A DNA stretch of 64,000 nucleotides. Origin: Actinomycetes bacterium (GTDB lineage: Bacteria; Auribacterota; JAJCYG01). Position numbers and translations under genes: made by a program. Location: assembly GCA_029263055.1 (NCBI GenBank), contig JAJCYG010000099.1:64083-128082 (forward strand), read 5' to 3'. Shown here in pieces: positions 10,272 to 62,543 of this stretch (within the stretch, counting starts at the first letter, position 1; the number at the start of each line of letters is the position of its first letter). The notes under the pieces are model-generated. The model saw only the letters and a list, made by a program, of their open reading frames with translations, was not told the origin of the DNA and searched no databases.

Positions 10272-10302
10272 AGCTTCTATTGTAACATAGATTTAGGGTG
10301 CT

Positions 10303-12519: not shown

Positions 12520-12561
12520 GTTCTTATAACATACCTGCTAATGAGTGATTGCACAAGTCGA

Positions 12562-14743: not shown

Positions 14744-15261
14744 TTAGTCTGTCCTAGTTTCTTTATAATTTTTTTAGCTGATTCACAAGCGGTCTGTCCG
14801 GTTGTAGAAACAGAAAAAGCAGCTGCTTTCTTATATAGCGGCCGTCGTGATTTTAATAACTTTTGCATGGTTTGAAAAGCATTTTTTGTATTTAATAGAG
14901 GACGTTTCTTATTTTTTGATGTTCTAGAATAGATTTCCCTCTGGCCTGCAGTTAAGCAAACCACCGTGGATTTGCTTTGCATGTCCCGTATATTGAGGGG
15001 ATTGACCACAATTCCACCCCCGGTTGAGATCACACGCTTTTTCTTCTTAAGTGCTTTTTGCAGCATGCGTCGTTCCACACGCCGAAAATAAGGCTCGCCC
15101 GAATCTGAAAAAATCTGAGCAATAGACCGTTTCTCAGCTTTCTCAATCTCAGTATCTATATCGAGAACCTGCCACTTGATCTTACGCGCCAAATAGCGTG
15201 CGACCGAAGTTTTGCCTGTTCCCATAAATCCGATAAGTAAAATATTTTCTGTTTTCATCAA
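14740..15261 (-). CDS. aroK: Shikimate kinase
   Basis: 173 aa; P-loop ILLIGFMGTGKTSV at N-terminus, size and context with aroB. Confidence 0.8.
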   Translation of the reverse strand: MMKTENILLIGFMGTGKTSVARYLARKIKWQVLDIDTEIEKAEKRSIAQIFSDSGEPYFRRVERRMLQKALKKKKRVISTGGGIVVNPLNIRDMQSKSTVVCLTAGQREIYSRTSKNKKRPLLNTKNAFQTMQKLLKSRRPLYKKAAAFSVSTTGQTACESAKKIIKKLGQTK

Positions 15262-15276
15262 TTGATCTCGTATTAA

Positions 15277-16389: not shown

Positions 16390-16493
16390 TTAGCCCTCCT
16401 AATCGCTTCAAATTATGAAGCAATTATACATGCTAATCGCTTCATTTACAAGAGGGTCATGTAAGTTCTTTGTTGTGAACTATTTAAGTGAGA

Positions 16494-35841: not shown

Positions 35842-36906
35842 ATGAATAATCCGGCTCAAATTATTTTTGCAAGTGCTTTAGGGGCATCAGTCTTGATACA
35901 TGGAATGGTCTATTCCGGGCTAGAGGTCTCTTCTATGATTGTTCCGGCTCAGCCTATTCAGGTCATGCCTCAAATGAAGCGCCCTCCTAAAGTGACGTTT
36001 GAATTCACAGATGCTCCTGATGACTTAAAAGATGAAGAGACGCCTCTAAAACAGACAAATAAGATTTCGAGTAAAAACAGTTCTGCGCGTGATTTGATTG
36101 CGGACAAAGTTAAATCTCCGCAAACAGGGCCAGCAGCGCCTGTAGTTAAAGATGGGGCGCAGCAATTGGCTAAAAAAAATCAGCCAGATCTTTACATACA
36201 AGATAAGAAAGGAGCGCAGGTTCCAAATCAAGATTACCTCACTCCTTTAGATCAGAAGCTTCCTTTAGAAGAAACATTTGAAGCCGAGCCTGATAAAAAA
36301 GAAGAAGCGATTGCTGAAATGAAAAAAGATTTGATTAGTTTAGAGAAATTAAAAAAAGATTTAGATAAAAAACTGTCTAAAAAAAGAGAAGACTTACTTG
36401 AGAAGCAAAAGAAAAAAGTTCAAAAAGAACGAACTCAAGAGATGAGTCAAACATATACGCCTCAAGGTAATGCCAAACAAGATAAGCGGGTTGTTGTTTA
36501 TGATCCGACACGCAACGTAGACACTTATCAAGCAGAGATGGTTCAAAAATTTGTGGCGACAGCCATTGATATTGGCTCTCCTTCATTTAGTTCTAACAAA
36601 CATATTTTAGGTCCTTACTTGGATCGTCTCAAAAGTCGAGTGTCACCGTTATGGCATTTGAAATTAGAATCACAAGATTCAGGAAGGCTCTTTAACACGA
36701 AAAAAGTGGTAATAGGGGTTCAAATATTAAAAGATGGAAGTTTAGGCGCGTTATTGATTCTTCAAGATTTTGGAGATGATCTGTTTAATAAACTTTGCTT
36801 AGACACTTTTATTGAGCTTGCCCCTTTTGAGTTTTTACCCACAGAGTGGAAGCAAGAGAGTGGGTTGGACCATTTGAATCTTATTTATCGATTTAAGGCG
36901 TATTAG
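35842..36906 (+). CDS. TonB/TolA-like protein candidate (N-terminal TM anchor, Pro/charged linker, C-terminal TonB-C-like domain)
   Basis: 354 aa; TM IIFASALGASVLIHGMVYSG; linker rich in P, K, E, D; C-terminus VVIGVQILKDGSLGALLILQDFGDDLFNKLCLDTFIELAPFEFLP resembles the TonB C-terminal beta-beta-alpha-beta fold ending F.P; assignment tentative. Confidence 0.4.
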   Translation: MNNPAQIIFASALGASVLIHGMVYSGLEVSSMIVPAQPIQVMPQMKRPPKVTFEFTDAPDDLKDEETPLKQTNKISSKNSSARDLIADKVKSPQTGPAAPVVKDGAQQLAKKNQPDLYIQDKKGAQVPNQDYLTPLDQKLPLEETFEAEPDKKEEAIAEMKKDLISLEKLKKDLDKKLSKKREDLLEKQKKKVQKERTQEMSQTYTPQGNAKQDKRVVVYDPTRNVDTYQAEMVQKFVATAIDIGSPSFSSNKHILGPYLDRLKSRVSPLWHLKLESQDSGRLFNTKKVVIGVQILKDGSLGALLILQDFGDDLFNKLCLDTFIELAPFEFLPTEWKQESGLDHLNLIYRFKAY

Positions 36907-36909
36907 AAC

Positions 36910-38568
36910 ATGAAACAAAACAGCTTTGTTTTTCTTCTTTTTATTTTGTTAACAGCCATCATGACTTTTCCTTTGGTCAAGACAATGTCTGTTTTTATGG
37001 ATACCACTGGAGATCCTTTTTTTAATGCATGGACCTTAGCTTGGACTCAGCATCAGCTCTTAACAGATCCGCTTCATTTGTTTGATGCTAATATTTTTTA
37101 TCCTTATAAATTGACTTTGGCTTTTTCAGAGCATCAAGTGGCTTCAGCTTTGTTGGCTCTGCCTGTTTATCTTTTAGGAGGAAGTCCTATCCTCGTTCAC
37201 AATGTGGTTTTTTTCTTAACATTTGTTCTTTCTGGTTTTGGACTTTATCTTTTAGTTAAAGATCTAACAGGAAATTCTCTTGCTGCAATTTTAGCTGGAA
37301 TGGCGTTTGCGTTTAGTTCTTACCGTTTTTCTCAATTAGCACACCTCCAGATTTTAGCATTTCAATGGATGCCATTTGCTTTAGTCTATTTGCATCGAGC
37401 ACTCAACCAACCTCAGTGGAAAAACTTTTTGCTTATGGGGCTGTTTGTTTTTCTTGTTTTAATGTCTTCTAATTACTTAGGTCTTATTTTTCTTATTTTT
37501 ATCAGCTTTTTTCTTCTTATTGTGGTTCCAAAAAAATGGTTTGAAGAAAAGGGGAGAGGGTTGAGACGTTGTTTTTTTACGTTGCTTGCTGTTGGAATTT
37601 TATTTCTTCCTTTTGCTTTGCCATATGTGAAAGTGAAAGAGGAATATGGTTTTTCTCGAGAATTAATTGATATGAAGCAGTACAGTGCTCGGGCTGAAAA
37701 CTATTTAGGTGTGAGCACTAATCACAAGTTCTATCCTAATAAATTAAAGAAAATGGGCAAGCCTGAAAGCAGACTCTTTTTTGGTTTTCTTGTGATGGGG
37801 ATGGCGTTTTTAGGTTTGTTGTTAGCTAAGAACATTTCTTTACGTATTCGTTTAGGCTATGGTGTTGTTTTATTGCTCTCATTTTTACTCTCAATGGGAG
37901 GAGGGGCAAAACTTTTTGGAATCAACTTAAATGGTTGGCCATACCAATTCTTTTATTCCTATGTGCCTGGCTTTGATGGAATGCGTGTGCCAGCCCGATT
38001 TGCGATTAATGTCGGTCTTTGCTTGGCTGTGCTAGCTGGATTTGGATTTGCTCTTGTGTTTCAAAAAATAAAGGGAAAACTTCTTTCTTGTTGTTTGGTC
38101 TTTCTTTTAAGCGCCGGGATTTTAGCTGAAGCATGGGCTGCTCCTTTAAGATATATTCACTTTGCTTTCAAAGCGCCTCCTGTTCACCCTTGGTTGGGGC
38201 ATCAAGATGATGTTGATGGGGTTGTTTTTTTACCTGCTTATATTAATAACTCAGTCCATTTAGAGATGAATTATATTTTTTGGTCTAATCTTCATTGGAA
38301 AAAAATAATGAATGGCTATAGTGGGTTTTTTCCTGCTGAGTGGAATGAATTTAAGTTAAAGCTTCGAGAATTTCCAACTAAAGAAACGGTTGATCATCTG
38401 CGTCGAGTAGGGGTAAACTATGTGGTGATTAACAAACACAAATATCCGCAAGATATGCTGAATAGAATGGAAAAGCGGATCAAGCGTTTTTCAAACGAAT
38501 TAGAACAGATTAAGAATTGGGGCGGTCAAACGGTTTATCGCCTTAAAATGAAAGGGATTGAAAATTGA
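36910..38568 (+). CDS. Polytopic membrane protein, putative GT-C-fold glycosyltransferase-like protein
   Basis: 552 aa, more than 10 predicted TM helices; N-terminal region with conserved acidic residues (DTTGDPFFNAW...) as in lipid-linked glycosyl/aminoarabinose transferases; overlaps the start of the downstream epimerase gene (TTGA). Confidence 0.55.
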   Translation: MKQNSFVFLLFILLTAIMTFPLVKTMSVFMDTTGDPFFNAWTLAWTQHQLLTDPLHLFDANIFYPYKLTLAFSEHQVASALLALPVYLLGGSPILVHNVVFFLTFVLSGFGLYLLVKDLTGNSLAAILAGMAFAFSSYRFSQLAHLQILAFQWMPFALVYLHRALNQPQWKNFLLMGLFVFLVLMSSNYLGLIFLIFISFFLLIVVPKKWFEEKGRGLRRCFFTLLAVGILFLPFALPYVKVKEEYGFSRELIDMKQYSARAENYLGVSTNHKFYPNKLKKMGKPESRLFFGFLVMGMAFLGLLLAKNISLRIRLGYGVVLLLSFLLSMGGGAKLFGINLNGWPYQFFYSYVPGFDGMRVPARFAINVGLCLAVLAGFGFALVFQKIKGKLLSCCLVFLLSAGILAEAWAAPLRYIHFAFKAPPVHPWLGHQDDVDGVVFLPAYINNSVHLEMNYIFWSNLHWKKIMNGYSGFFPAEWNEFKLKLREFPTKETVDHLRRVGVNYVVINKHKYPQDMLNRMEKRIKRFSNELEQIKNWGGQTVYRLKMKGIEN

Positions 38569-39440
38569 AATCAGTATTAGTAACTGGAGCTGATGGGATT
38601 GTTGGAAAACGTTTGATTGAGAAACTTGTTAAAGAAGGGATTGTGCCTGAAGTTTTTGTTCGAACAGACCGAGAAAAAGCATTTTTTGATTCTCATAAAG
38701 TTGAAATGATTGTTGGCTCGGCAAAAGATTCTTCTTTATTAGAGAGCCTTGTTAAAGGGAAAGAAGCTGTGATTCATTTGATTGGTTCGTTTGCTCCTGA
38801 AAATGGAGATTCCCTTGACGATGTGAACAACATGATTAGTTATAACCTGCTTAATGCAGCCCAAGATAATGGCGTGCAAAAATTTATTTATCTTTCTGCT
38901 TATGGTGCTTCTGTTGCTGTTCGCAATCCTTTCTTGGTGAGTAAAGGAAATGCAGAAGTTGATATTATGCAGGGAGAAGTTCCTTATTTTATTTTAAAAG
39001 CAGCGCCGATTTATTCTAAAGAGACCTGTTTGGGCGAGTTGCTTCAAGAGTTTGTTCAAACTAAAAAAGCGCAGTTAATTGGAACTGGAAAACAACAGAT
39101 TCAACCGATCTTCTTAGACGATGTGATTGAATATTTGTACCAAGCTTTAGTCGACCCTAATGCGCGTCAACAAGTGTTAGAAATTGGGGGTCCTGACAAA
39201 GTGAGCTACGAAGAATTAGTTCAGCTTGCTTCAGAAGTTTCAGGCCAAGCTATTCAAATTAAAAAAGTCCCTTCTTTTTTAAAATCTCTTTTAGCTCCAG
39301 TAAAATTAAAAGGGAAATTACTTCCAGAAGATGTGGTTGACTTTTATAGCCGTGATACATTCATCTCAAAAGAACGTGCAGACAAAGTTATTCCTCTCAC
39401 ATTAGTTTCATTACGCGATGGTCTGAAAAAAATTCTGTAA
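38565..39440 (+). CDS. NAD(P)-dependent epimerase/dehydratase (NmrA/SDR-like)
   Basis: 291 aa; N-terminal GxxGxxG Rossmann VLVTGADGIVGKRLIEKL; TTG start translationally coupled to the upstream gene. Confidence 0.7.
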   Translation: MKSVLVTGADGIVGKRLIEKLVKEGIVPEVFVRTDREKAFFDSHKVEMIVGSAKDSSLLESLVKGKEAVIHLIGSFAPENGDSLDDVNNMISYNLLNAAQDNGVQKFIYLSAYGASVAVRNPFLVSKGNAEVDIMQGEVPYFILKAAPIYSKETCLGELLQEFVQTKKAQLIGTGKQQIQPIFLDDVIEYLYQALVDPNARQQVLEIGGPDKVSYEELVQLASEVSGQAIQIKKVPSFLKSLLAPVKLKGKLLPEDVVDFYSRDTFISKERADKVIPLTLVSLRDGLKKIL

Positions 39441-50208: not shown

Positions 50209-51456
50209 TTGAAAGTGCCTCATATTAAAACAAAGCTACCTGGTCCAAAGGCAAAAAAGATTATTGCCCGAGACCATAAAACTATCTCTTCCTGTTATAA
50301 TCCGCGACCATACCCTCTTGTTGTTGACTATGCTAAAGGGCTTGTCTTAACTGATGTGGATGGGAATAAGTTTCTCGATTTCACAGCAGGGATTGCTGTT
50401 TGTTCGACAGGGCATGCGCATCCTAAAGTGGTGGCTGCAATTCAAAAGCAAGCGTCCAAATTTTTGCATATGTGCGGGGCTGATTTTTATTATGAAAATC
50501 AGGTTGAGCTTTCTGAACGATTAGCTCGATTGGCTCCTGGAAATTTTAAGAAACAGGTCTTTTTTACAAACTCAGGTGCGGAAGCTGTTGAGGCGGCACT
50601 TAAGTGTGCCCGTTACACCACTAAAAGAAAAAAGATACTCGCTTTTTATGGCGCGTTCCATGGTCGGACCATGGGAGCGCTTTCGTTAACCAATTCTAAA
50701 GCCATTCAACGCAAACATTTTGGGCCCTTTGTTCCTGAAGTGGTGCATGCACCTTATGGGGATATTGATTTTATTGAAAACAAACTGTTTAAAAATTTAG
50801 TGGATCCTTCTGAATTAGCCGCTGTGTTTGTGGAGCCGATTCAGGGTGAAGGGGGCTATATTGTGCCGCCTAAAGGTTTTTTAAAAAAGCTGAGAGCTTT
50901 GGCCACGCGCCATAAGTTTTTGTTTATTTGCGACGAGATTCAAGCAGGGATGGGGCGAACAGGTAAGATGTTTGCTATTGAGCATGAGAACGTGGTCCCT
51001 GATATGGTTTTGTTGGCTAAAGGGATTGCTTCAGGTATGCCTATTGGAGCCTTGATTGCAAATGCGAAGTATATGACATGGGTTCCTGGTGCACACGGAT
51101 CAACGTTTGGAGGCAATCCTGTGTCGTGTGCCGCTGCGATTGAAACGTTGAACTTGATTGAAAAGAGCTTTATGGCTAATGCTAAGAAACAAGGGGATGA
51201 GCTTCGAAAGCATTTAGATCAAATGGCTCATGATTTTAAATCAGTTCAAGAAGTTCGGGGCCGTGGTTTGATGCAAGCAATCGAAATTGGGAATGCTAAA
51301 AAGAGAGATGCGATTGCTGAAGCTTGTTTTGAAAAAGGGTTGTTATTGCTTGGGTGTGGTGCCAGTGCAATACGGTTTAGCCCGGCGTTAAACGTGTCTA
51401 AGAGTGAAGTGTTAACTGCAGTTAAGATTTTAAGAGAAGTTCTAAATCAGTTTTAA
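50209..51456 (+). CDS. Class III pyridoxal-phosphate aminotransferase (ornithine/GABA/acetylornithine aminotransferase-like)
   Basis: 415 aa; TTG start 6 nt after AAAGGAGG; PLP-lysine region DEIQAGMGRTGKMFA; LPGPKAKK N-terminus typical of GabT/RocD. Confidence 0.85.
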   Translation: MKVPHIKTKLPGPKAKKIIARDHKTISSCYNPRPYPLVVDYAKGLVLTDVDGNKFLDFTAGIAVCSTGHAHPKVVAAIQKQASKFLHMCGADFYYENQVELSERLARLAPGNFKKQVFFTNSGAEAVEAALKCARYTTKRKKILAFYGAFHGRTMGALSLTNSKAIQRKHFGPFVPEVVHAPYGDIDFIENKLFKNLVDPSELAAVFVEPIQGEGGYIVPPKGFLKKLRALATRHKFLFICDEIQAGMGRTGKMFAIEHENVVPDMVLLAKGIASGMPIGALIANAKYMTWVPGAHGSTFGGNPVSCAAAIETLNLIEKSFMANAKKQGDELRKHLDQMAHDFKSVQEVRGRGLMQAIEIGNAKKRDAIAEACFEKGLLLLGCGASAIRFSPALNVSKSEVLTAVKILREVLNQF

Positions 51457-52094
51457 TCTTTTCTAAAACTCAAATCATCAATAAAAAGAGTGTCGCCTCG
51501 ACGGTTTCCGATACTATCTCCGAATTCAATTCCAACCACAACTAGTTTTGTTAAATCAATGCTTCGTTTTTCATATTTTTCACTGAACTTAGAAACTCGA
51601 CTTAAAGGAATATCAATGCGGCGCCAGTTGGTGGTTGCTGTGTTGTCATCAGGTGTGTACTTTACTGTTGGAAGATAACTTTTTGAATGGCCATCACGTA
51701 AGATGACGTTAAACCGTTCGCCTCCATTTTTTCCTCGAATCCAGAAGGAAAAATATTTGTATTGGCTTACATCTAAAGGTCGGACTGTAAGCGGTTCGGT
51801 TTTAGCATCTAAAATTGGGCCTAAGTTCATACTCATTGATCCCCAGTTTTCTTTGGCGCGTGGGCTGTTGACCAATTTAAACGAGGAGCTTCCTGTGTGA
51901 AGATAGCGAGGTTGAAAGTCGCTACTGTAAGATGTTAGCTGACCTGAAAAAGGATAGCCTGATCCCCAGACCTCTGGCTTACTCCCTAAATAACCTGGGG
52001 TGACCTCAAAATCAGTGACCAAAATTTCTGGATATCGATAAGAGAGAGGAGCTGCGACAACTGTGAGTAATAAAAAGCTGAGTAATAGGTTCAT
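51453..52094 (-). CDS. Secreted hypothetical protein, tandem paralog A
   Basis: 213 aa; signal peptide; shares blocks with the upstream gene (FWIRGKNGGERFNVILRDGH vs FWIKGKTGGEKVTIAFRDAH; TLFIDDLSF vs IFYIDDFYF). Confidence 0.6.
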   Translation of the reverse strand: MNLLLSFLLLTVVAAPLSYRYPEILVTDFEVTPGYLGSKPEVWGSGYPFSGQLTSYSSDFQPRYLHTGSSSFKLVNSPRAKENWGSMSMNLGPILDAKTEPLTVRPLDVSQYKYFSFWIRGKNGGERFNVILRDGHSKSYLPTVKYTPDDNTATTNWRRIDIPLSRVSKFSEKYEKRSIDLTKLVVVGIEFGDSIGNRRGDTLFIDDLSFRKD

Positions 52095-52780
52095 GATTCA
52101 GGCTCATCCTTTGCACTTTTTGCAAAATAAAAATCATCAATATAAAAAATATTGCCTTCGTTATTTCCGCGGTTTAATCCAAATTCTAAAATAACTTGAT
52201 CTAATTTTGAGAGGTCTATTTTTTCTTCAAGCTCTTTTAATGAGATGACAATTTTTTGCCATTTTTTTGAGAGACCTTCTGGTTTGGGGTCAATGGTTAC
52301 TTGTGGCAGATCATTGATTGCGTGGGCATCACGAAAGGCTATTGTGACCTTTTCTCCGCCAGTCTTTCCTTTAATCCAAAAAACAAGATAGTTGAAATTG
52401 CGGACATCTAAACTTTCAATCTTAATAGGAATAGATTCTGTATCAACTAGTTTTCCTAAGCCTAAGCTAAAAGTTGCCCAGCGGAGTTTTTCTTTAGCAA
52501 ATCCATTGGTACAAATAAAAGATTGTCCACCGCGGCGAACATTGAAATCTTGATAGTTAGGTGTGAGTTCCCCGTAATACCAGCTATGAGCCGCTTCAGT
52601 ATCTTCCCAATTAGGCTCGGCTGCGCCAAATACACCTACAGAACCGCCTAAATTGTTTGGATAGGATTCAAAGTCAGCAATGACCAGGGTTGATTCTTTT
52701 TGGGCATGAATGGAGTGTGGCGAGATTAAGATCTGCCAGGCAATCAAAAATGGATTGAGTTTTTTGAATAGTCTTCTCAT
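52091..52780 (-). CDS. Secreted hypothetical protein, tandem paralog B
   Basis: 229 aa; signal peptide LIAWQILISPHSIHA; paralogous to 51453..52094; 4-nt overlap. Confidence 0.6.
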   Translation of the reverse strand: MRRLFKKLNPFLIAWQILISPHSIHAQKESTLVIADFESYPNNLGGSVGVFGAAEPNWEDTEAAHSWYYGELTPNYQDFNVRRGGQSFICTNGFAKEKLRWATFSLGLGKLVDTESIPIKIESLDVRNFNYLVFWIKGKTGGEKVTIAFRDAHAINDLPQVTIDPKPEGLSKKWQKIVISLKELEEKIDLSKLDQVILEFGLNRGNNEGNIFYIDDFYFAKSAKDEPES

Positions 52781-52855: not shown

Positions 52856-53767
52856 ATGGAAAAAATGACATCCGATTTTAATTTAAAATCGTTCTTAAAA
52901 CAAAACCAAAAATGTATAGACGATGCGTTGGAAGAGTTTATTCCCCAACCAGTTGGAGCGTTCGCCCAGATTCATGAGGCGATGCGTTATTCTATCTTTG
53001 CGGGCGGAAAGAGGTTGCGGCCGATTCTCTGTTTGGCCAGTTACCACATTTTTCAGTCTGAACAAGATGATTTAAGTTCTATTTTACCTGCTGCCAGTGC
53101 CTTAGAGATGGTTCATACTTATTCTTTGATTCATGATGATCTCCCCTCAATGGATAATGACGATTTTCGCCGAGGCAAGCCTACGAACCATAAAGTTTAT
53201 GGGGAGGCAGTGGCTGTTTTGGCTGGAGATGCGCTTTTGACCCTGGCTTTTGAAGTGGTGAGCAAAACAGAAAAGATTGGCTCAGAAACCGTTAATCAGG
53301 TGCTTCAAGAATTGGCGCTTCGAAGCGGAACGTTAGGATTGATTGGCGGACAAATTTTAGATTTAGATGCTGAAGGCAAGACTTTGTCTGGTGATCAACT
53401 TAAAGCCATTCATTTGCATAAAACTGCTGCTTTGATTCAAGCCTCGATTCGAATGGGAGCCATTGTTGGGGGCGCTGATGAAGCGCCGTTAAAATCACTC
53501 ACTTTATTTGGAGAAAAAGTAGGACTCGCATTTCAGATCGTGGATGATATTTTAGATGTTGAAAGCAGCACAGAAACTTTAGGAAAAACCGCAGGCAAAG
53601 ATGTGAACCAAGAAAAATCAACCTATCCCTCTGTTTATGGTTTAGCTGAATCAAAAAAAATGGCAGAAGCATTAAAAAATGAAGCGATTGAAGAAATTGA
53701 TTTGTTTGGAGAAAAAGGGGAGCCTCTTAAGTCGCTTGCTCTTTATGTCATTGAACGAAAGAATTAA
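52856..53767 (+). CDS. Polyprenyl diphosphate synthase (farnesyl/geranylgeranyl diphosphate synthase)
   Basis: 303 aa; first and second Asp-rich motifs LIHDDLPSMDNDDFRRGKPT and FQIVDDILD. Confidence 0.85.
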   Translation: MEKMTSDFNLKSFLKQNQKCIDDALEEFIPQPVGAFAQIHEAMRYSIFAGGKRLRPILCLASYHIFQSEQDDLSSILPAASALEMVHTYSLIHDDLPSMDNDDFRRGKPTNHKVYGEAVAVLAGDALLTLAFEVVSKTEKIGSETVNQVLQELALRSGTLGLIGGQILDLDAEGKTLSGDQLKAIHLHKTAALIQASIRMGAIVGGADEAPLKSLTLFGEKVGLAFQIVDDILDVESSTETLGKTAGKDVNQEKSTYPSVYGLAESKKMAEALKNEAIEEIDLFGEKGEPLKSLALYVIERKN

Positions 53768-53777
53768 CCCTCTCTAT

Positions 53778-56063
53778 TTAAGAAGTTCTTTTCCAATTAA
53801 ATAAGTGTTTTCCACTCCAATACCACCGTTGTTTGTTTTTATCCCGTTTAATTGAAAAGAGAACAAAGGAAGAAGTTTTTTCTTTAACAAATGAGATTTT
53901 ATTTTTTGTTAATTGTTCTTCAACATCCTTTGCTGTTTCATTAGGAACAACTAAAAGAGTTGGCTTTGAAAATGTTAGAACTCTATTTTTAAGGACCTCA
54001 TTATTAATTGGAGCTTGCCAGATATTGACCACATCTAAATGCCTTTGATTTTCTGATAGATGAGCTGAGAGCCAAACTGTTGAGTAAATTTTATGATTTG
54101 AATAGTTGTTTAATTTTTTGCTGAGGTGATCAATCTCTTCTTTTTTAAGTGTTTGTAAAGGAGTCTTGGTTTGGCGGTACAAGCAAATTTCTGCAAAGGC
54201 CCAGTAGTGGGGGTGCTGGCGATTTGGTTTAGTGAGTTCTACTTTGATAAAACGAACGGGTTTTCCATTGAGTGCGATTTCTTTGCGATCGTGCACGCCA
54301 TGATCAAAAGGGTGAGCTCCATCCCAGAAAAACCCCCATAAAGGGGCTATGCTGGGTGTTTCTTTCCAAGACTTTCCGTTGAGAGAGGTGCTAACTTTAA
54401 TTTCTTCTGCCACGCCATTAAGTGCGTTTCCAATATAGAGTTCCATCTTATTGATAGGTTCAGGGCGTGAAAGTTCTATGGTAAAACTCATTCCTTCAAC
54501 TTGTTTGGTTTTTGTCATCCAGACAGAACGTAAATTGTGATCTGCGGCTAAAGAAGTCTCGAGATTATTATCTGAAGCGTTTAATTTCCAGCTTGCAGGA
54601 TCAATTAAAATAGAAGCATTTCCTTTTTTGTTGAATGAAGAATAAAAATCAAAAGGGGCCGCATTAAATTTTTCATAATCAATATTTAAAGCTTGAAACG
54701 AGTCTTCTAACTTTTTATTGTGGCCAACTGTTAAAAAAGCAGGATTCCATAATGCATCGGTTTTTCGAGTATAAAGAGGGTAACGATCTAAAAAAGGATG
54801 TGGAAAGACTATTGTTTCACCCATATCAAATGTGGCAACAGGGCCAAGCCAATAAGTGTAGGTGTAAGCTCCGTAGACTTGTTTCTCTAAAAGAGTCTGT
54901 TTTGTTTTTTTCTTGGTGGCCATGTCTTCGCGAAAGCGTTTGATCCGTTCTGTATGAACAAAGGGGTGGCTTAATGAGTTATCTTGAAAAAAGATAATGA
55001 GCAGCAAACCAACAAAACCATATCCTAGCCAATGGCTTTTTTCTTTTAACGTTTGAAAGGCGCGTGCTAAAAATATCGGTAACACCGAATAGAGAGGGAG
55101 TAAATGACGTTGTGTGTTTTCTCCACCGTAAAAGCTGGCACTTTGTAGGTAAATAATGATCAGCAGAAAGGCAAATGGGAGCCAAAGTTCTTTTGGGTGT
55201 TTGCGTGTGAGAAGCCAGATTGCTGTAAAAATAAAAATAAGTATACTGAAAACCTTCCAAAACTCGGGTGTGCGGTCACGAATGCCTAAAACAAACATTA
55301 GTTTCCATTTAAAGAAACTAATCACATTGCTCCATAGATTGACTTCGCTATTTTTAAAAAAGATAGTGATAGAAGCAAAGTCATGTGTGAAGTTGTAAAT
55401 CCAAAAAGGAAGGCTTCCAATAAAGAACATGCCTAAAAGTAGAAAAAATTCTTTTTTGAAAAATATTTTTTTATCATGCCAAAGTAAAAACAGGCCGCAT
55501 GTAGCAAAGTAATAGAGACATAAGAAATTTGTCCACCATGCTAATCCTGCAATCAAACCAAACCAGAGAAAATATTTTTTTCTTTGGTTGAAAGTCGGTG
55601 TGCCAAAAACAATTTTAGCTGTCAGTAGCATTAGTAAACTTCCAAAAATCATGGTCTCTAAATACCCGTGTCGAGCCCATGCCCCATGTAAGACTAAAAA
55701 GTAAGGTCCAAAAGCTGTGAGCAGTGCAGCAACTAAGGCGCTTCCTTTGTTTTTTAAAAATTCATTGGCCAGTAAGTATGTGACGAAGATAAAGACTAAA
55801 GAGAGAAGTAGTGGAACGCTGTTTAAGGTGTAGCGATTAAGGCCAAACAGAGCAAATGGAATGGCATCGAGATAAGATTGTAGGGTACCCATATAATGGT
55901 AGCCCCATTGAAAAACAGGGAATTCACCTTGAAGTACATGCCAGCCCGCTAAACCAAAGATAGCTTGATCCGCGTCCATATGGGGTGCAAGCAAATAGCC
56001 TAATCGATAAATGGCTGCACCGATTAGAATCAAAGCTAAAGAAAGTGTTGTTTTACTTTTCAT
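53778..56063 (-). CDS. GT-C-fold membrane glycosyltransferase (ArnT/PMT-like) with C-terminal extracytoplasmic F5/8-type-C (discoidin-like) domain
   Basis: 761 aa; about 12 N-terminal TM helices with ArnT/PMT-like first loop (APHMDADQAIFGLAGWHVL); C-terminal 150 aa (SVWMTKTKQVEGMSFTIELSRPEPINKMELYIGN...WAFAEICLY) resembles a discoidin domain. Confidence 0.65.
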   Translation of the reverse strand: MKSKTTLSLALILIGAAIYRLGYLLAPHMDADQAIFGLAGWHVLQGEFPVFQWGYHYMGTLQSYLDAIPFALFGLNRYTLNSVPLLLSLVFIFVTYLLANEFLKNKGSALVAALLTAFGPYFLVLHGAWARHGYLETMIFGSLLMLLTAKIVFGTPTFNQRKKYFLWFGLIAGLAWWTNFLCLYYFATCGLFLLWHDKKIFFKKEFFLLLGMFFIGSLPFWIYNFTHDFASITIFFKNSEVNLWSNVISFFKWKLMFVLGIRDRTPEFWKVFSILIFIFTAIWLLTRKHPKELWLPFAFLLIIIYLQSASFYGGENTQRHLLPLYSVLPIFLARAFQTLKEKSHWLGYGFVGLLLIIFFQDNSLSHPFVHTERIKRFREDMATKKKTKQTLLEKQVYGAYTYTYWLGPVATFDMGETIVFPHPFLDRYPLYTRKTDALWNPAFLTVGHNKKLEDSFQALNIDYEKFNAAPFDFYSSFNKKGNASILIDPASWKLNASDNNLETSLAADHNLRSVWMTKTKQVEGMSFTIELSRPEPINKMELYIGNALNGVAEEIKVSTSLNGKSWKETPSIAPLWGFFWDGAHPFDHGVHDRKEIALNGKPVRFIKVELTKPNRQHPHYWAFAEICLYRQTKTPLQTLKKEEIDHLSKKLNNYSNHKIYSTVWLSAHLSENQRHLDVVNIWQAPINNEVLKNRVLTFSKPTLLVVPNETAKDVEEQLTKNKISFVKEKTSSFVLFSIKRDKNKQRWYWSGKHLFNWKRTS

Positions 56064-56085
56064 ACTTTTTGATCTGAATGAGCTG

Positions 56086-57174
56086 CTATTGTTTAACAGT
56101 ATACCAAAATTCAGGTTGGATCAATTTGAGGGCTTGTTTGAAATATTTTTCTGAGCCAGAGCCAATCACATTCATGAGTGATTGCCCCATAACAGTGGCC
56201 ATTCCCATTGGAATGCCAAGCGTTTTTTCGTGCCAAAGGTAAACACAACCTTTGCATATACCGCAATGTTTCTCATAAGTTTGGTCGACCATGCTTTGTC
56301 GAAACTCAACCATTTTATCGTTATTCCAAATCTCTTTTAGCGAGTGCGTATTGGTATCCCCAATCTCACATTCACCTTCAAAGTCAAAACAGCATGGCAC
56401 TACTTTTCCATTGGCTAAAATAGACATTGAGACCCAAAGGTAAGAGCATGGGGAATAGGTTTCTTCGGTCAAAGTTTTGGGTTTATATTGATCGGTGTTA
56501 TTTAAGGTGTTACCCCAATTGTGTGGAAAGCGGATATTAACTTCATCAATTGGAAGATCATCAAAAATTGTGTGGAATTTTTGTTCTAACTCATTTCCAG
56601 GAACATAGGTGTCTGAATCTGTGATTAAGGTTTGGAGCACGGTGTAAGGTTTTTTAACGCCAAGTTCTTTTTTGCGTTTTAAAAATTTAACAATGTTTTC
56701 AATGGTCTTTTCATATTTAGCGCCAACCCGAACTTTTTCATACTGTTCTTTGGTATAGCCATCAAATGAAAAGGAGATGTAGTCAAGGCCACTTTTAAAG
56801 ATCTCTTCGATGTATTTGTCTGTTAGTATTGTGGCGTTGGTATGAATAAGAGGGCGAATTCCTTTGTCCTCTGCATACCGAATCATTTTAAAGATATCTT
56901 TATGTAGAAAAGATTCTCCTCCCAAAAAGAGAAACGCAGACCCAATAAATTCAGAGGCTTCATCCACAATCTTTTTAAACTGTCCTAAAGGCATGTAGGT
57001 GATGTTTTCTTTGCTTTCTAAAACAGAGTTCGGGCAGACCACGCAAGCTAAGTTACATTGTCCTGTTGGTTCCAGCCATAAAAACTGAGGCAAATAGGGG
57101 AGTTTGACTGTCTTTTTATTATAGTGATACAGAGAACGGACACTGTTATTGAGAACTTTTAATTTATTAGCCAT
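56086..57174 (-). CDS. Radical SAM enzyme with C-terminal SPASM (auxiliary Fe-S cluster) domain
   Basis: 362 aa; CxxxCxxC at LEPTGQCNLACVVCP; C-terminal Cys cluster CSYLWVS...VVPCCFDFEGECEIGD...CGICKGC. Confidence 0.8.
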   Translation of the reverse strand: MANKLKVLNNSVRSLYHYNKKTVKLPYLPQFLWLEPTGQCNLACVVCPNSVLESKENITYMPLGQFKKIVDEASEFIGSAFLFLGGESFLHKDIFKMIRYAEDKGIRPLIHTNATILTDKYIEEIFKSGLDYISFSFDGYTKEQYEKVRVGAKYEKTIENIVKFLKRKKELGVKKPYTVLQTLITDSDTYVPGNELEQKFHTIFDDLPIDEVNIRFPHNWGNTLNNTDQYKPKTLTEETYSPCSYLWVSMSILANGKVVPCCFDFEGECEIGDTNTHSLKEIWNNDKMVEFRQSMVDQTYEKHCGICKGCVYLWHEKTLGIPMGMATVMGQSLMNVIGSGSEKYFKQALKLIQPEFWYTVKQ

Positions 57175-57183
57175 AACAACAAA

Positions 57184-57963
57184 TTACTCTTTTTTTGAAT
57201 GGGCTAAAGCTTCAATTTTAGTTGAGAGCTTAAACATAGAATATCTTTTGATACCCCATTTCCAGAATAAAAACTTTCTTAAGGTATTAAGTGTTTTGAG
57301 CCCATAAATAGAGCTGTTCACAAAATTTATTCGGGAAGCTTCTTCAAAGTAACGAGTAGGAATGCCTATCTCGCTAATTTTAAAACCACGTGCCACTGCT
57401 TGGGCCACGATTTCAGTATCAAAAACAAAATCATTCGAACACTCGTACCAGGCAATCTCATCTAAAAAGTGACGGGAGTAAGCACGCAACCCTGTGTGGT
57501 ATTCAGAAAGTTTGCGGTTAAAAGCAGTGTTCTCTGTCCATGTTAGAAATTTATTCGCAATAAATTTCCACATTGGCATCCCACCTTTTAAAGCACCTTC
57601 ACCCAGCATTCGTGAACCAAAGACCACATCGGCTTCACCGCTTACGATAGGGGCTACCATTTCAGGAAGCTTAGTTGCATCGTATTGATAGTCCGGGTGA
57701 ATCATCACGACAACATCTGCATCGTGTTTCAGAGCGGCTAAGTAACATGTTTTTTGATTGGCGCCATAACCAGAGTTGATCGAGTGAACAATGATTTCAA
57801 TTCCCAATCGTTGGGCGATTTCAACCGTGTTATCTTGACTTGCATCATCGACTAGAATAGTTTCATCCACTAAATCTTTTGGGATGTCTTTGTAAGTCCG
57901 TTCTAATGTTTTTGCGGCATGGTAAGCCGGCATGATCACAACTACTTTTTTACCTTGAATCAT
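57184..57963 (-). CDS. Family 2 glycosyltransferase (polyprenyl-phosphate sugar synthase, Dpm1/GtrB-like)
   Basis: 259 aa; GT-A motifs VVIMPAYHAAKTL, DDASQDNT, DxD-like HPDYQYD. Confidence 0.8.
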   Translation of the reverse strand: MIQGKKVVVIMPAYHAAKTLERTYKDIPKDLVDETILVDDASQDNTVEIAQRLGIEIIVHSINSGYGANQKTCYLAALKHDADVVVMIHPDYQYDATKLPEMVAPIVSGEADVVFGSRMLGEGALKGGMPMWKFIANKFLTWTENTAFNRKLSEYHTGLRAYSRHFLDEIAWYECSNDFVFDTEIVAQAVARGFKISEIGIPTRYFEEASRINFVNSSIYGLKTLNTLRKFLFWKWGIKRYSMFKLSTKIEALAHSKKE

Positions 57964-57972
57964 TTTTTACCT

Positions 57973-58668
57973 CTAATTGACAAATCGATATTTTAATAGA
58001 GTCCACAGAGCGGCAATGCCATCTCTCCAGGTTATTTTTTTGCCTTCATTAAATTCACGACCACAATATGAAATTGGCACTTCATAGATACGAATGCCCT
58101 GTTTCAAAATTTTTGCAGTTAGTTCGGGTTCAAAATCAAATCGATGAGAATTGATTGTTAAGCTTTGTATAATATCACGTTTTATCACCTTATAACATGT
58201 TTCCATGTCGGAAAGAGTTGAATTATAAAGAACATTGGTCATAAAGGAGAGAAACTTGTTTCCGACCCAATGGTGAAAAAACATGTTTCGGTGTTCTCCC
58301 GTAAACCTCGATCCATAAACGACTTCTGCTCTTCCTTTTTGAATAGGTAAGATTAATTTAGCGTAATCTTCAGGGTCATATTCCAAATCAGCATCTTGAA
58401 TCAGGACATAATCACCCGTGGCTGCGGTTAATCCGGTGCGAATCGAAGCCCCTTTTCCTTGATTAACTTGATGAGAGAGGAACTTTACAGAGCCGTTAAA
58501 TTCGGTTTCACAGATTTTACGGGTCCCATCTGTAGAGGCATCATCAATTAAAATGATCTCTTTTTCAATGCCTTCTAAAGAAACAGCTTGGACTTGCTTC
58601 ATGATCTCAAGCAAGGTTCCTTCTTCATTATAGACTGGAATAATTATCGAAAGTTTCATAAAGGCCAC
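57973..58668 (-). CDS. Family 2 glycosyltransferase (polyprenyl-phosphate glycosyltransferase, ArnC/Dpm1-like)
   Basis: 231 aa; SIIIPVYNEEGTL, IDDASTDGT, QDADLEYDPED (DxD). Confidence 0.8.
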   Translation of the reverse strand: MAFMKLSIIIPVYNEEGTLLEIMKQVQAVSLEGIEKEIILIDDASTDGTRKICETEFNGSVKFLSHQVNQGKGASIRTGLTAATGDYVLIQDADLEYDPEDYAKLILPIQKGRAEVVYGSRFTGEHRNMFFHHWVGNKFLSFMTNVLYNSTLSDMETCYKVIKRDIIQSLTINSHRFDFEPELTAKILKQGIRIYEVPISYCGREFNEGKKITWRDGIAALWTLLKYRFVN

Positions 58669-58737
58669 AACCCTAACAATTTTCCCCTATAAATACAACA
58701 AGAAAGGCCTGTGTTTGTCGTGTACTGAATTCAGGGT

Positions 58738-58969
58738 ACACTGCGTGTCGAAATGTTGCCACAAAGACGGAGCAAAAAATGTGAGGGAAAGAGCAAGACT
58801 GGTGTTTGAACGGAGCCCCGCGCCGAATGTGCGTCTGCCAAGGGGGCTTTAGCCCTCTGGCAGAAAGCCATTCGGACCAGAGGCGCAGTGAGTTCATTCT
58901 TGCCCTCACATTTTTTGCGCAGTCTGCTGCAAATTCCGGGTGAAGGGGAAACATCTTTTAGATTATTTT
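58738..58969. repeat. Second copy of the MITE-like core: the 5' segment ACACTGCGTGTCGAAATGTTGCCACAAAG, then a core nearly identical to 31046-31210 (a few substitutions) carrying a 31-nt dyad-symmetric insertion (58834-58864), then a right terminal inverted repeat GGGGAAACATCTTTTAGATTATTTT
   Basis: Read directly by aligning the two regions; lies in the divergent intergenic region between the GT2 gene and aroC; lacks the left terminal inverted repeat of the 31011 copy. Confidence 0.65.
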
Positions 58970-59052
58970 GGCACTAGCTGATGAACGTAGCGTAACCACC
59001 TATATGTCTAAAGGCTTGAAAGATGGGGGGAGGAGGTTTATACTAAGTCATT

Positions 59053-60132
59053 ATGAGTAGCATGTTTGGGCAATTATTCAGAGTTTCGACGTTTGGGGAG
59101 TCTCATGGCGGCGCTGTTGGCGTGGTGGTGGATGGCTGTCCTCCAATGTTAGCTATTTCTGAAAAAGAGGTCCAAAAGGAGCTGAATCGGCGTAAACCTG
59201 GGCAGAGCCGAATTACCACAGCCCGAAACGAAGCTGATCAAGTCCAAATCCTTTCTGGAGTCTTTCAAGGCAAAACCCTTGGAACCCCTATTTTAATGCT
59301 CGTGGGAAACACCGATGCCCGTTCTCAAGATTATAAGCAGATGCAAGATCTGTTTCGTCCCTCTCATGCTGATTTTACTTATCAAATGAAGTATGGCATT
59401 CGTAACTGGCAAGGGGGAGGTCGTTCTTCTGCACGTGAAACCATTGGTCGTGTGGCAGCAGGGGCTATTGCGAAAAAGCTTTTAAAAGAGCGTTATAAAA
59501 CAGAAATTTTAGCTTATGTGAAACAAGTTCATGATTTGTATGCTGAAGTCGATTCCAATAAAGTTCAATTAAAAGATATTGAGAAAAATATTGTTCGTTG
59601 TCCAGATGCTAAAGTGGCTAAAGAGATGATTGCGTTAATTGACCAGGTTCGCAAACAAGGCGATTCACTTGGGGGTGTCGTTGAAGCAGTGGCTCGTAAC
59701 GTTCCTATTGGTTGGGGGGAGCCTGTGTTTGATAAGCTCGAAGCTGATTTAGCTAAAGCCATGATGTCGCTTCCTGCTTCTAAAGGTTTTGAAATTGGAA
59801 GTGGTTTCTCTTCAATCATGATGACCGGTTCCGAGCATAATGATCCTTTTACACTTAAAGGAAACAAAGTTAAAACCAAATCAAATTTTTCCGGTGGCGT
59901 GCAAGGTGGCATTTCTAATGGAGAAAATATTGTGATTCGTACTGCGTTTAAACCAACTGCAACAATTATGAAATCCCAAGAAACAGTTTCCGTAAAAGGG
60001 AAAAAAGCAATCCTTAAAGCTAAAGGGCGTCACGATCCATGTGTGCTGCCTCGTGCTGTTCCTATGGTGGAGTCGATGATTGCTTTAGTCTTAGCGGATC
60101 ACGCTTTGCGCCATGAAGCACAGTGTCGCTAA
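59053..60132 (+). CDS. aroC: Chorismate synthase
   Basis: 359 aa; [28 protein letters not shown] and [25 protein letters not shown] motifs. Confidence 0.9.
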
Positions 60133-62543
60133 AGAGCAGATTCGATTGGTTCTGTAGAAGCTAATGCTAAAATCTCCTTTTCATTATCAAAACTAAATAA
60201 ACTTCTTAGTTCATCCATTTGTTGCTGAACTCTTTTCTTTCTTTCTTCAAATGTACCACTTCTAACTTTGTGTAAAAAAATCGGTGTTATTTCAGGAAAA
60301 TGGTAAACCAATATTTCAATTAAAGGAATGATCTCTTTAAATTCTTCCCGGTTATTTAAGATTTGTGATCTGACAATGGATTGAACCATCGCTATTTTTT
60401 CTTTGGGTTCTTTGATGAAGCCTTCTTCTCTTAAAACTTCTAGATCAGGAAGTTCTTTTAATAACTCTTGTGTATGAGCCTCTGAAAAAAAGAGTTTAAG
60501 TTGACTTCCTTTAGGATAAGTCACGTATGAAATGACTTGAGCTAAAAATTCTTCAATATTAGAGGTGCCCGGGATGGTTTTGTTATCAACAAATAAACTT
60601 TTTCTTTGAATAAGAAACCGGTTGTTGAGTTTGTTGAATAATTCACCAAGGGTTTGAATTGAAAAGAGTAAGTCTTCAAATGAAATCGTTTTTTCTCTTA
60701 GTCTGCTTCCTTGATAGTAAGATTTTATTTTCATTTGGACGTGTGAGTGGATGACTGCTTCATGGTGGATAACACCTAAAACAAAATCCCCAAAAGAGTC
60801 GACAAAAGCATTTTCTAATGTTTGGTTTGAGAGGGCTTGAGATAGAATTTTCCAAATCTTAAGTAAATGATCTTTGCTGATTCGAATCAAACCATTTTGA
60901 TTGGCTCCTAAAGGTTCGGCTAAAGAGTGTCGGGCAGTTTCTGTCATTCTAGAAGAGCTACCTCTTAAATTTTCTATGGCTTCACGGATGACTTCTTTAT
61001 CTAGAGAAGAAAATTGACTGATTGCTTCAGTTGCATTGTAAAAATTAACTTTCCCTTTAGCTAAAATCATTTCATTGGTTGCTTCAGCTGAAGGACCTAG
61101 TTGGGGTGTGATGAACTGTCCTCGTTGACGTAAGACTAAAATAACACCACCGTGCGTGCCAGAAACACCGGTTGCTGTATTGGCTGCAGTAGTGCCTACT
61201 CCTTGCCTACTCTGTATCGAAAGGATTTCTCCATTTACAATTTGTTGAACGGCTTCCGGAGTAAATGTGGTGCCGAGATTGGCATTGTCATGAGTTGCTT
61301 GAGAGAGTGCATTGGCAAAGCGAACTGTTTGAGCGCTATCAAGACCGCTATTTGCTGTCCCTAAAGTAAACGCAATGCCAGATGGATTTTGTGTGCCGAG
61401 TTGCTGTTTGATGCTATTGGGTTGAGTGGGATCAAGTGCTCTTACAAAATTTAGCTGGCCATTGCCGCTTGTATTTCCAAGAGTCATAACAGTACTGGTT
61501 TGCATGTCTGCGGCATAACCGGTGTCTAATGTTTGGTAATTACCGTTAGCCACTCCATTTGAATTACGTCCTTGGTTGAATCGTCCTTGAGTGTCATTCC
61601 ACAAGCTTTCAATAAATAAACGAAGATTAATGGCCGCTGTTCTGTACTGAGTGGCTTTTGTTGAATTTGTTGTGATGTTAGTAAACTCATTTAAAAAGGA
61701 AAATGCGGCAATATTTTCTTCTCCTGAAAGAGCTAACTGAGCACTGTTTTCAACAGCTTGTCCTGGAAATGTAGGGCGAGAGACGAGCGTGGTTAAAAGG
61801 TAGTCTGCAATGTTTTCTCCCATTGGAACAAATTGTCTGTCTCCAGTTTTGAGTGTGTAGAGGTTGATCGCCAATCCTGTAAAGGCAATAGCTCCTGTTT
61901 CTTTTTCTGTGAGGTCTTGAGTTGAGTTTGTTAAATGAAAACAAGCTGTAAAAGAGCCATCGGCATTTTGATTGGAGTGAAGAGTGCTTAAAATAGTTTG
62001 AGCCGTTTGTTGATAATTATTATTTGGAGCTTTGCTCTCAGCAACTAAGAGCGCCATAACAGCCATGGCTTGATTGTAAACGTGAGCAAATGAATTTGTA
62101 TTGGCTTCAAAACTTTTAACCAGTCCAACCAGGTTTGTGCGAGGCGTTCCGCTCGATTGAATGAGCTGCGTGGCGCGTTGGATTTGAAGCGTTAGCCAGT
62201 CTGCATGTTCTTGAATGCTTAAGTTTGGAGTTGGTAGTGTGGGTGCTTGTGTTGAAGGAGTGCGGCGTTTCTCAGAGCTACAGCCAATAATAGGGGCAAA
62301 TACAATGACTCCTAAAAGAGATCCGATTCCTGCAACCACAAGACGGCGATGCCGAAAAAAACGTTCTTCATTGGTTTCAGCTTTTATTTTGGGAGGTCCC
62401 CTAAAGATGGAGGGGCTTATGCTTGTTGAAATGATCTGTGATGGAACCGCTAAGTATTCTAGATCAGTATTGTGCTTGATTGGAGTGGATAGACTCAAGC
62501 AGAGGCAAACAAAAGCTGATAAAAACTTGAGCAGAAAAGACAT
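60129..62543 (-). CDS. Large secreted/lipoprotein-like hypothetical protein (804 aa)
   Basis: N-terminal signal peptide, then a hydrophobic segment ending in IIGCSS (possible lipobox); Asn/Gln/Thr-rich central part; helical C-terminus; no catalytic motif recognised. Confidence 0.6.

Follow-up and report, generated by a model that had tools for sequence, protein, structure and literature searches.

What does a radical S-adenosylmethionine (radical-SAM) enzyme do in the middle of a set of glycosyltransferase genes? The question is raised by a four-gene cluster at positions 53778–58668 of a 64,000-nucleotide (nt) stretch of DNA from contig JAJCYG010000099.1 of assembly GCA_029263055.1; this whole stretch is referred to here as the window, and coordinates given for the cluster and its surroundings are positions within it. 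The cluster encodes two family 2 glycosyltransferases (GT2a and GT2b), the radical-SAM enzyme (rSAM), and a 761-amino-acid (aa) membrane-bound transferase of the GT-C type with an F5/8 type C domain (GT-C). A first-pass annotation had described four co-directional, tightly spaced genes, and this layout is confirmed: the positions match the list of open reading frames (ORFs) exactly, all four genes lie on the minus strand with intergenic gaps of 9, 9, and 22 nt, and the GC content is uniform over the cluster. We regard it as probable, with moderate confidence, that the cluster is a single operon whose products carry out extracytoplasmic glycosylation by way of a sugar linked to polyprenyl phosphate, with optional tailoring by rSAM, in the multi-component manner of the Gtr, Arn, mycobacterial decaprenyl-phosphate-arabinose (DPA), and GT136 systems.

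The four proteins of the cluster

The rSAM protein belongs to the radical-SAM superfamily, as it combines a partial TIM-barrel core with a CX3CX2C motif whose three cysteines (C40, C44, and C47) are found in every one of 37 homologues, and it matches the Pfam families Radical_SAM (71 bits) and SPASM (58.6 bits). The family comprises 766 representatives at E ≤ 1e-30 after clustering at 50% identity. When the single sequence is searched against the PDB, the top match is BtrN (2e-15), with the sugar enzymes DesII and BlsE ranking next, ahead of SuiB and GDGT-MAS. A profile built from the 37 sequences matches BtrN over both the core and the C-terminal domain (2.6e-29, 105 bits), and all other structures score 53 bits or less, among them SuiB and PqqE at 47 bits and anSME at 35 bits (E 7e-8). 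BtrN is also ranked first by Foldseek (E 2e-14, TMt 0.74) when the predicted structure of rSAM, which has a predicted local distance difference test score (pLDDT) of 91, is used as the query. The proposed active-site base of BtrN falls outside the segments aligned with rSAM.

The C-terminal cysteines define the class of the enzyme more closely. Only four of them (C243, C261, C307, and C310) are invariant among the 37 sequences, and these align with cysteines of the BtrN C-terminal domain, which we take to be the ligands of the auxiliary (twitch) cluster of BtrN. The seven-cysteine SPASM motif, with its spacing CX9-15GX4C ... CX2CX5CX3C ... C, is incomplete, with CX12GX4C present and a second half that reads CX2CX2C. 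Because only four auxiliary cysteines are invariant, rSAM is, at the level of its family and judged by its sequence, a twitch-type enzyme and not one with a full seven-cysteine SPASM domain, despite the Pfam match. Three further cysteines are distributed more narrowly: C269 and C304 occur in 4 of the 37 sequences, namely the window protein and the three sequences most closely related to it, and C262 occurs in 19. These residues might ligate a second auxiliary cluster or act as a hydrogen-atom donor. No transmembrane (TM) segment or export signal is found in rSAM, and its model contains a single helix at residues 2–19 and no N-terminal domain resembling a RiPP (ribosomally made and post-translationally modified peptide) recognition element (RRE). 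Sequence and model together indicate that rSAM is not a RiPP- or anSME-type maturase, and that its closest solved relative is the sugar dehydrogenase BtrN.

The two GT2 proteins match the Pfam family Glycos_transf_2 with 120 bits (GT2a) and 77 bits (GT2b). The best PDB matches are ArnC (6e-18) and PfDPMS (1.5e-17) for GT2a, and PfDPMS, the Pyrococcus dolichyl-phosphate-mannose (Dol-P-Man) synthase, and ArnC for GT2b, while AglJ, a Dol-P-hexose transferase, PpgS, and ArnC are the best NCBIfam matches of both. The best matches of each protein are thus polyprenyl-phosphate glycosyltransferases, in agreement with the pair of Dpm1/ArnC-like enzymes recognized at first. Neither protein contains a hydrophobic or TM segment, so a C-terminal TM anchor is absent. 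Such an anchor is present in ArnC, GtrB, and PfDPMS and absent in PpgS and human DPM1; GT2a and GT2b match only the TM-less subclass of the polyprenyl-phosphate glycosyltransferases. The motifs of GT2a are canonical (DDxS and DADLEY), and its true start is most likely ATG 58659, since two related loci (L004 and L006) conserve that start. GT2b carries HPDYQY at the DXD position, an unusual variant of the metal site that is kept in its orthologues in other phyla, from the PVC-like (Planctomycetes–Verrucomicrobia–Chlamydiae) clade to the Nitrospirae. GT2s of the GT2b family always adjoin a GT-C gene (window 57184–57963; locus L008, 5496–6257; locus L011, 597–1364).

The 761-aa protein yields no PDB match at E ≤ 0.1 by sequence, and its identity is carried by its fold. 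The AlphaFold (AF2) model, built from an alignment of 18 homologues (pLDDT 93.7, predicted TM-score 0.90), consists of a membrane domain of helices that extends to residue ~393, followed by an alpha/beta region, a beta-sandwich (residues ~493–635), and a C-terminal alpha/beta domain; a hydropathy scan with a 19-residue window finds eight hydrophobic segments at a threshold of 1.5 and seven at 1.6. In Foldseek searches of the PDB, the membrane part matches AftD best (E 8e-9), followed by ArnT (E 3e-8, TMt 0.62–0.64), and it also matches PglB, AglB, and EmbC. The beta-sandwich matches carbohydrate-binding modules (CBMs) of the Gal/GalNAc-binding CBM32 type (E 2e-6 to 4e-5, TMt 0.67–0.82), and the Pfam family F5_F8_type_C scores 29.9 bits, above its gathering threshold (GA) of 28.2. 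Homologues of the protein carry precomputed matches to PF13231. Residues R20, D30, and D32 are invariant in the 18-homologue alignment, with the motif PHMDxDQA lying directly after the first TM segment (the codons were checked), and D32 is still invariant among 38 sequences; D30 and D32 are candidate catalytic acidic residues. A loss of the acidic residue in the first loop, which had been set beforehand as the observation that would weaken the assignment, is thus not seen. The ArnT/PMT-like GT-C enzyme and the F5/8-type C domain of the first-pass annotation both stand, and the model describes the protein as a GT-C transferase of the ArnT/AftD/oligosaccharyltransferase structural type with a lectin-like periplasmic module. 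CBM-type modules are likewise borne by the glycan-acting Emb, AftD, and GT136 enzymes (PMC11127046).

Related loci, the proposed pathway, and its alternatives

Six syntenic loci were compared, namely the window and the loci L004, L006 (GCA_040960375.1), L013, L014, and L019. Their common order is GT2a–GT2b–[rSAM]–GT-C–[GT-C2], followed by a convergent ispA gene and two CBM30-like genes and then, wherever the contig reaches that far, by aminotransferase and aldehyde dehydrogenase genes. The rSAM gene is present in four of the six: the window and L004 combine it with one GT-C, and L013 and L019 combine it with a second GT-C paralogue of 910–923 aa. It is absent from L006 and L014, where the stop codon of GT2b lies 3–6 nt ahead of the GT-C start; in L013 and L019, the start of rSAM overlaps the stop of GT2b. 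Identity to the window proteins is 70–81% for GT2a, 78–90% for GT2b, 77–85% for rSAM, and 47–63% for GT-C, which is, by this measure, the fastest-evolving protein of the cluster. The identity of rSAM across the clade, compared with that of GT-C, indicates that rSAM is under purifying selection. The gene is dispensable for the locus, yet it is strongly conserved and fixed in position where it is present. The second GT-C(F5/8) gene (L013, 10232–13003; L019, 4961–7693), which is missing from the window, is nearest to an 889-aa GT-C of locus L007, and the GT-C1/GT-C2 pair seems to be ancient.

Outside the clade, a profile search of genome contigs with an 11-sequence GT-C alignment returned four loci, with the genome of the window itself not among them. 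An orthologue of GT2b (287–289 bits) lies directly upstream of a GT-C(F5/8) gene in L008 and L011 (Nitrospirae metagenome-assembled genome, MAG), and tandem GT-C paralogues are common (L007, L008, L009 (Methylomirabilota), and L011). L008 contains GT2a-like/GT-C and GT2b-like/GT-C pairs. In L007 (1–13813), two tandem GT-C(F5/8) genes lie inside an Arn-like set that comprises an epimerase of the short-chain dehydrogenase/reductase (SDR) type, a hexapeptide acetyltransferase, a polysaccharide deacetylase, LPG_synthase_TM, DegT aminotransferases, a GT2, and a small EamA protein. The cross-phylum core of the system is GT2b with GT-C(F5/8), and rSAM is an add-on specific to the clade of the window.

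More distant relatives of rSAM are found in glycan gene contexts. A 40%-identical homologue from a Falkowbacteria genome lies amid GT2, GT1, and GT4 genes, methyltransferases, and other radical-SAM genes. Three further contexts contain, respectively, three B12-radical-SAM genes, a methyltransferase, a GT2, and a PMT_2 GT-C (L016); four GT2s, two methyltransferases, and a PMT_2 GT-C (L017); and GT2, GT9, YdjC, and AsnB (L018). The PMT_2 proteins of L016 and L017 have no detectable relation to the GT-C of the window, and the association of rSAM with GT-C enzymes therefore arose with different GT-C families. On plasmid pBHWA1 of Brachyspira hyodysenteriae (NC_012226.1, 36 kb), which encodes a 31%-identical homologue, three places in the record match the window rSAM. 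Eight radical-SAM-type genes (seven annotated as 'radical SAM protein' and one as 'SPASM domain-containing protein') are interleaved there with other genes at 3757–16515, and the neighbours include rfbF, rfbC, an SDR, GDP-mannose dehydratase, a HAD hydrolase, and glycosyltransferases.

From the tight co-directional spacing, and from the overlap of GT2b and rSAM in two relatives, we infer an operon, and we complete it with a lipid-linked donor, a chemistry and substrate stage for rSAM, an acceptor, and a flippase. [quoted passage not shown] The BtrN-like rSAM would use a 5'-deoxyadenosyl radical to take a hydrogen atom from a carbon of the sugar, leading to the conversion of a secondary alcohol into a ketone, to epimerization, or to a related rearrangement. 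A role in sugar tailoring is proposed because BtrN is the best relative of the enzyme and because its relatives sit in glycan clusters. Its substrate would be the lipid-linked sugar or the nucleotide precursor of that sugar, and in either case the identity of the delivered sugar would change. As rSAM depends on SAM and on a reductant and carries no export signal, it would have to act before the donor is flipped. A flippase encoded elsewhere would then carry the donor over the membrane, and GT-C would transfer the sugar, via the loop with D30 and D32, to an acceptor glycan in the periplasm that its CBM32-like F5/8 domain holds. In such a scheme rSAM would be an optional diversifying module, and the relatives that lack it would add the unmodified sugar. 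Of the two possible substrates, the lipid-linked sugar is the one favoured by where the gene lies and by its overlap with GT2b in L013 and L019. The fuller version of the scheme, in which rSAM acts at the membrane on a polyprenyl-phosphate sugar and GT-C installs a rare keto, epimerized, or rearranged sugar on an envelope glycan, is offered tentatively and as somewhat doubtful.

Several observations weigh against this pathway. The equivalog cutoffs of NCBIfam are reached by neither GT2, the top match, AglJ, scoring 123 bits where 325 are required, and therefore no specific orthology can be claimed for them; GT2b, moreover, has no canonical DXD motif. The PMT_2 match of GT-C (25.7 bits) falls marginally under the GA of 26.1, although the identity of the protein is secured by the match of its fold to AftD and ArnT. 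No flippase is apparent: no small multi-TM ORF lies in or next to the cluster and none is obvious in the window, whose multi-TM ORFs are the nuo genes and others far off. The presence of two GT2s, a further weak point, suggests two donor/transferase pairs, of which one GT-C is missing from the window, because L013 and L019 have two GT2s and two GT-Cs and because GT2a-like and GT2b-like genes are each paired with a GT-C in L008. The contexts of the rSAM relatives amount to five independent loci, which is a small sample, and the neighbours of the pBHWA1 relative are nucleotide-sugar enzymes, which favours a nucleoside-diphosphate (NDP) sugar as the substrate of that relative. Donor, chemistry, and acceptor, finally, are predictions.

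The alternative that survives best keeps the same pathway and moves rSAM to an earlier step, at which it would act on a soluble nucleotide sugar before loading by the GT2, as DesII acts on TDP-sugars. The nucleotide-sugar and nucleoside-sugar enzymes DesII and BlsE are among the best PDB matches, rSAM has no TM segment, and rfbF, rfbC, an SDR epimerase, and GDP-mannose dehydratase surround the pBHWA1 relative. Set against these points, the rSAM gene sits exactly between GT2b and GT-C and overlaps GT2b in L013 and L019, Pfam detects no gene for nucleotide-sugar synthesis in the cluster, and the Arn and DPA pathways as a rule tailor the sugar once it is lipid-linked. We regard action on the nucleotide sugar as unlikely, though not to be set aside lightly. 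A second alternative concerns the acceptor, which would be not a polysaccharide but lipid A, as for ArnT, or serine and threonine residues of secreted proteins, as for PMT. ArnT is the best compact structural match of GT-C (TMt 0.62–0.64), the PMT_2 match falls just below its threshold, and the host encodes waaA and hence has Kdo (3-deoxy-D-manno-octulosonic acid)-lipid A; however, ArnT has no CBM, and PMTs use MIR domains. The tandem GT-C arrays of the relatives, furthermore, resemble polysaccharide-building systems, and the CBM32-like module of GT-C has its counterparts in the glycan-acting Emb, AftD, and GT136 enzymes (PMC11127046), so that a non-glycan acceptor appears distinctly improbable.

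Two further alternatives are very unlikely. In one, rSAM would modify an isoprenoid lipid, either the carrier or a membrane lipid, in the manner of GDGT-MAS and Tes, with the neighbouring prenyl synthase feeding the substrate. GDGT-MAS is the second-best profile match (53 bits), and the prenyl synthase is syntenic in six of six loci; however, the GDGT-MAS match is limited to the radical-SAM core (residues 34–148), whereas BtrN matches the core and the auxiliary domain, and the synthase is a convergent gene of the farnesyl diphosphate (FPP) synthase type that is kept where rSAM is absent. In the other, rSAM would be a hitch-hiker that came to its place by chance adjacency or insertion and has an unrelated role such as cofactor maturation. 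Its absence from two of the six syntenic loci, which are otherwise undisturbed, and its top NCBIfam matches, which are cofactor maturases (a W-cofactor maturase and AhbD), would fit such a role, but these matches reach 86–98 bits against cutoffs of 380–500 and cover only the core, the protein is 77–85% identical and constant in position across four diverged loci, and the association with glycan genes is independent and recurrent. Least probable of all is a role as maturase of peptides or proteins (RiPP, sactipeptide-like, or anSME-like) unrelated to sugars, for which the SPASM match, the weaker PDB matches to SuiB, SkfB, PqqE, and anSME, and several NCBIfam peptide maturases far under their cutoffs might speak, since a precursor gene would not fit into the gaps of 9, 9, and 22 nt, no RRE but only the lone helix at residues 2–19 is present, four and not seven auxiliary cysteines are conserved, BtrN scores 105 bits against 47 (SuiB and PqqE) and 35 (anSME), and every one of the five sampled contexts is a glycan cluster. 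Of the two roles that the first-pass annotation had allowed for rSAM, sugar modification thus gains support, from the match to BtrN (2.6e-29, compared with 7e-8 for anSME) and from the glycan contexts of the relatives, and peptide maturation loses it; the remark that no small precursor ORF is evident holds, and the grouping with anSME-type enzymes that had been considered is not found.

Coordinates and surroundings of the cluster

The features of the cluster are listed in Table 1. Downstream of GT-C, the prenyl diphosphate synthase gene (52856–53767) lies on the plus strand, with its stop codon 10 nt from that of GT-C. It encodes a short-chain FPP synthase (NCBIfam NF045485, 362 bits, cutoff 275) and hence not the enzyme that makes a long-chain carrier. 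A place in the pathway, as hinted when the gene was described as lying immediately upstream, was considered for it and rejected, since it is a convergent housekeeping gene (ispA) that is not upstream in the operon and is syntenic even in loci without rSAM. Beyond it, two tandem paralogous CBM30-like genes at 51453–52780 on the minus strand, which encode proteins of 229 and 213 aa, show conserved synteny across all six loci. A hydrophobic N-terminus is clear in the 213-aa protein, and no hydrophobic segment was scored in its 229-aa paralogue; the two could be glycan-binding envelope proteins linked to the product of the cluster.

Table 1. Features of the four-gene cluster and its upstream region, in window positions.
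Feature	Positions	Strand	Remarks
GT2a	57973–58668	−	231-aa ORF from GTG; probable true start ATG 58659 (228 aa)
GT2b	57184–57963	−	259 aa; DPM1/ArnC-class GT2
rSAM	56086–57174	−	362 aa; predicted cytoplasmic, BtrN-like radical-SAM enzyme
GT-C	53778–56063	−	761 aa; multi-TM with periplasmic domains (predicted)
CX3CX2C radical-SAM cluster motif of rSAM (C40, C44, C47)	57034–57057	−	Codons read CNLACVVC
Twitch/SPASM auxiliary-cluster domain of rSAM (aa 243–310)	56245–56448	−	Pfam SPASM and cysteine alignment
D30-A-D32 motif of GT-C, first extracytoplasmic loop	55968–55976	−	Codons read DAD
F5/8 type C (discoidin, CBM32-like) domain of GT-C (aa 499–616)	54216–54569	−	Pfam and Foldseek
aroC–GT2a intergenic region, divergent, presumed to bear the promoter	58669–59052		~45 nt before the ATG conserved

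At ~385 nt, the spacer that separates aroC from GT2a is unusually long, and L004 and L006 conserve only ~45 nt of it before the start codon. A 93-aa ORF within it (58673–58954) was judged spurious, and no Rfam match at E ≤ 1 that could indicate a structured RNA or leader upstream of GT2a is found in the 385-nt region; across the 64-kb window, no tRNA and no Rfam match is found. A consensus scan for promoters and terminators finds such sites no more commonly than in shuffled sequence and is uninformative on operon boundaries. Two large proteins encoded on the minus strand, of 960 aa (20810–23692) and 804 aa (60129–62543), have no Pfam or NCBIfam match, and the latter carries a hydrophobic segment at its N-terminus as well as a second TM segment. 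The 804-aa protein had been put forward as a candidate acceptor, which was rejected because it is not a conserved neighbour of the cluster: L013 has no homologue of it, and the gene directly upstream of GT2a there encodes an unrelated 1292-aa protein with HEAT-like repeats.

The window also encodes waaA (Kdo transferase, 8086–9360) and nuoLMN (2692–7389), which points to a Gram-negative host with Kdo-lipid A. The nearest named relatives of its TopA are encoded by MAGs labelled Chlamydiae/Chlamydiota and Verrucomicrobiae (52–53% identity) and by a Planctomycetes MAG (49%), and the host is, on such similarities, roughly placed in a deep PVC-like lineage. At 35842–39440 on the plus strand, genes for a 354-aa protein and a 552-aa protein with nine TM segments, neither with a Pfam match, are followed by a gene for an NAD-dependent epimerase/dehydratase of 291 aa. 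The GT-C profile does not pick up this trio, which may represent a further module for envelope glycans or lipids.

Known systems and the significance of the cluster

In the three-component systems, which include GtrA/GtrB/Gtr* and the set of PPPRS, a MATE protein, and the GT136 enzyme ORF12 of Citrobacter youngae (PMC11127046), a polyprenyl-phosphate-sugar synthase is cytoplasmic, as it would be here. The C. youngae system further resembles the present cluster in that a GT-C with a C-terminal CBM transfers the sugar in the periplasm and an accessory enzyme, optional among loci, alters that sugar. Comparison of C. youngae O2 with O1 has shown that the optional epimerase ORF13 alone sets the pentofuranose that is added by the promiscuous CBM-bearing GT-C (PMC11127046), and the presence or absence of rSAM at an otherwise identical locus mirrors, by analogy, that of ORF13. 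The two systems differ in that the C. youngae synthase is of the phosphoribosyl type, whereas two DPM1/ArnC-class GT2s are found here, and in that the accessory enzyme is an NAD-dependent SDR there and a radical-SAM enzyme here; in addition, the three-component systems have a flippase (GtrA, SMR/ArnEF, or MATE), and none is encoded in the cluster.

The Arn pathway (ArnC, the deformylase ArnD, the flippase ArnE/F, and ArnT) has the same logic, in which a GT2 is followed by tailoring of the lipid-linked sugar and then by a GT-C. Among solved structures, ArnC is a top match of GT2a and ArnT of the GT-C fold, and L007 carries Arn-like genes; however, the substrate of ArnT is lipid A and the enzyme lacks a CBM, tailoring in the Arn pathway is hydrolytic, and the cluster contains no equivalents of ArnA, ArnB, ArnD, ArnE, or ArnF. 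In the mycobacterial DPA system, DprE1/E2 epimerize the lipid-linked sugar by redox chemistry before its use, and one donor serves several CBM-bearing Emb and Aft GT-Cs. AftD is the top Foldseek match of GT-C, and PpgS, from the PpgS/Rv3779 galactosamine (GalN) pathway, is among the best NCBIfam matches of GT2b, with a profile of similar length (226 positions). The chemistry of DprE1/E2, in contrast, depends on flavin and NADH and not on radical SAM, and the mycobacterial lineage and envelope are different.

For the radical-SAM step itself, BtrN, the twitch-type 2-deoxy-scyllo-inosamine dehydrogenase of butirosin biosynthesis, comes closest among solved proteins in sequence, profile, and fold, and its auxiliary cysteines align with those of rSAM. 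Identity between the two is ~21%, however, and rSAM is ~100 residues longer owing to N- and C-terminal helices, has three extra cysteines in its clade, and lacks an aminoglycoside context. Calditol synthase (Cds) and HpnJ are radical-SAM enzymes that act on sugars already attached to isoprenoid lipids (PMC13459092). They offer a precedent, by likeness of function, for the tailoring of a lipid-bound sugar head group, but their products are final membrane lipids and not transient glycosyl donors. A 2026 review of lipid-modifying radical-SAM enzymes makes no mention of polyprenyl, undecaprenyl, or dolichol substrates (PMC13459092), and a literature search for radical-SAM enzymes in GT-C/polyprenyl pathways and for discoidin-bearing GT-Cs found nothing specific. 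The type of pathway is thus already known, and its combination with an optional BtrN-like radical-SAM tailoring enzyme was not found described in the literature searched.

Systems of a GT2, a flippase, and a GT-C are a main route by which lipopolysaccharides, teichoic acids, and arabinans are decorated in bacteria, and the enzymes that accompany them, among them ArnD, DprE1/E2, and the epimerase ORF13, set antigenic identity and are drug targets. If the proposed pathway is correct, radical-SAM carbohydrate chemistry would extend from antibiotic biosynthesis to envelope glycans. If, in addition, rSAM acts on a polyprenyl-phosphate sugar, the cluster would hold a previously unrecognized tailoring step for lipid-linked glycosyl donors, within an enzyme family that recurs beside different GT-C families. 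The presence or absence of rSAM across the six syntenic loci provides a natural comparison set, and the pathway would give a first testable role to this uncharacterized radical-SAM family and to the GT2b/GT-C(F5/8) pair of Nitrospirota, Methylomirabilota, and PVC-like bacteria.

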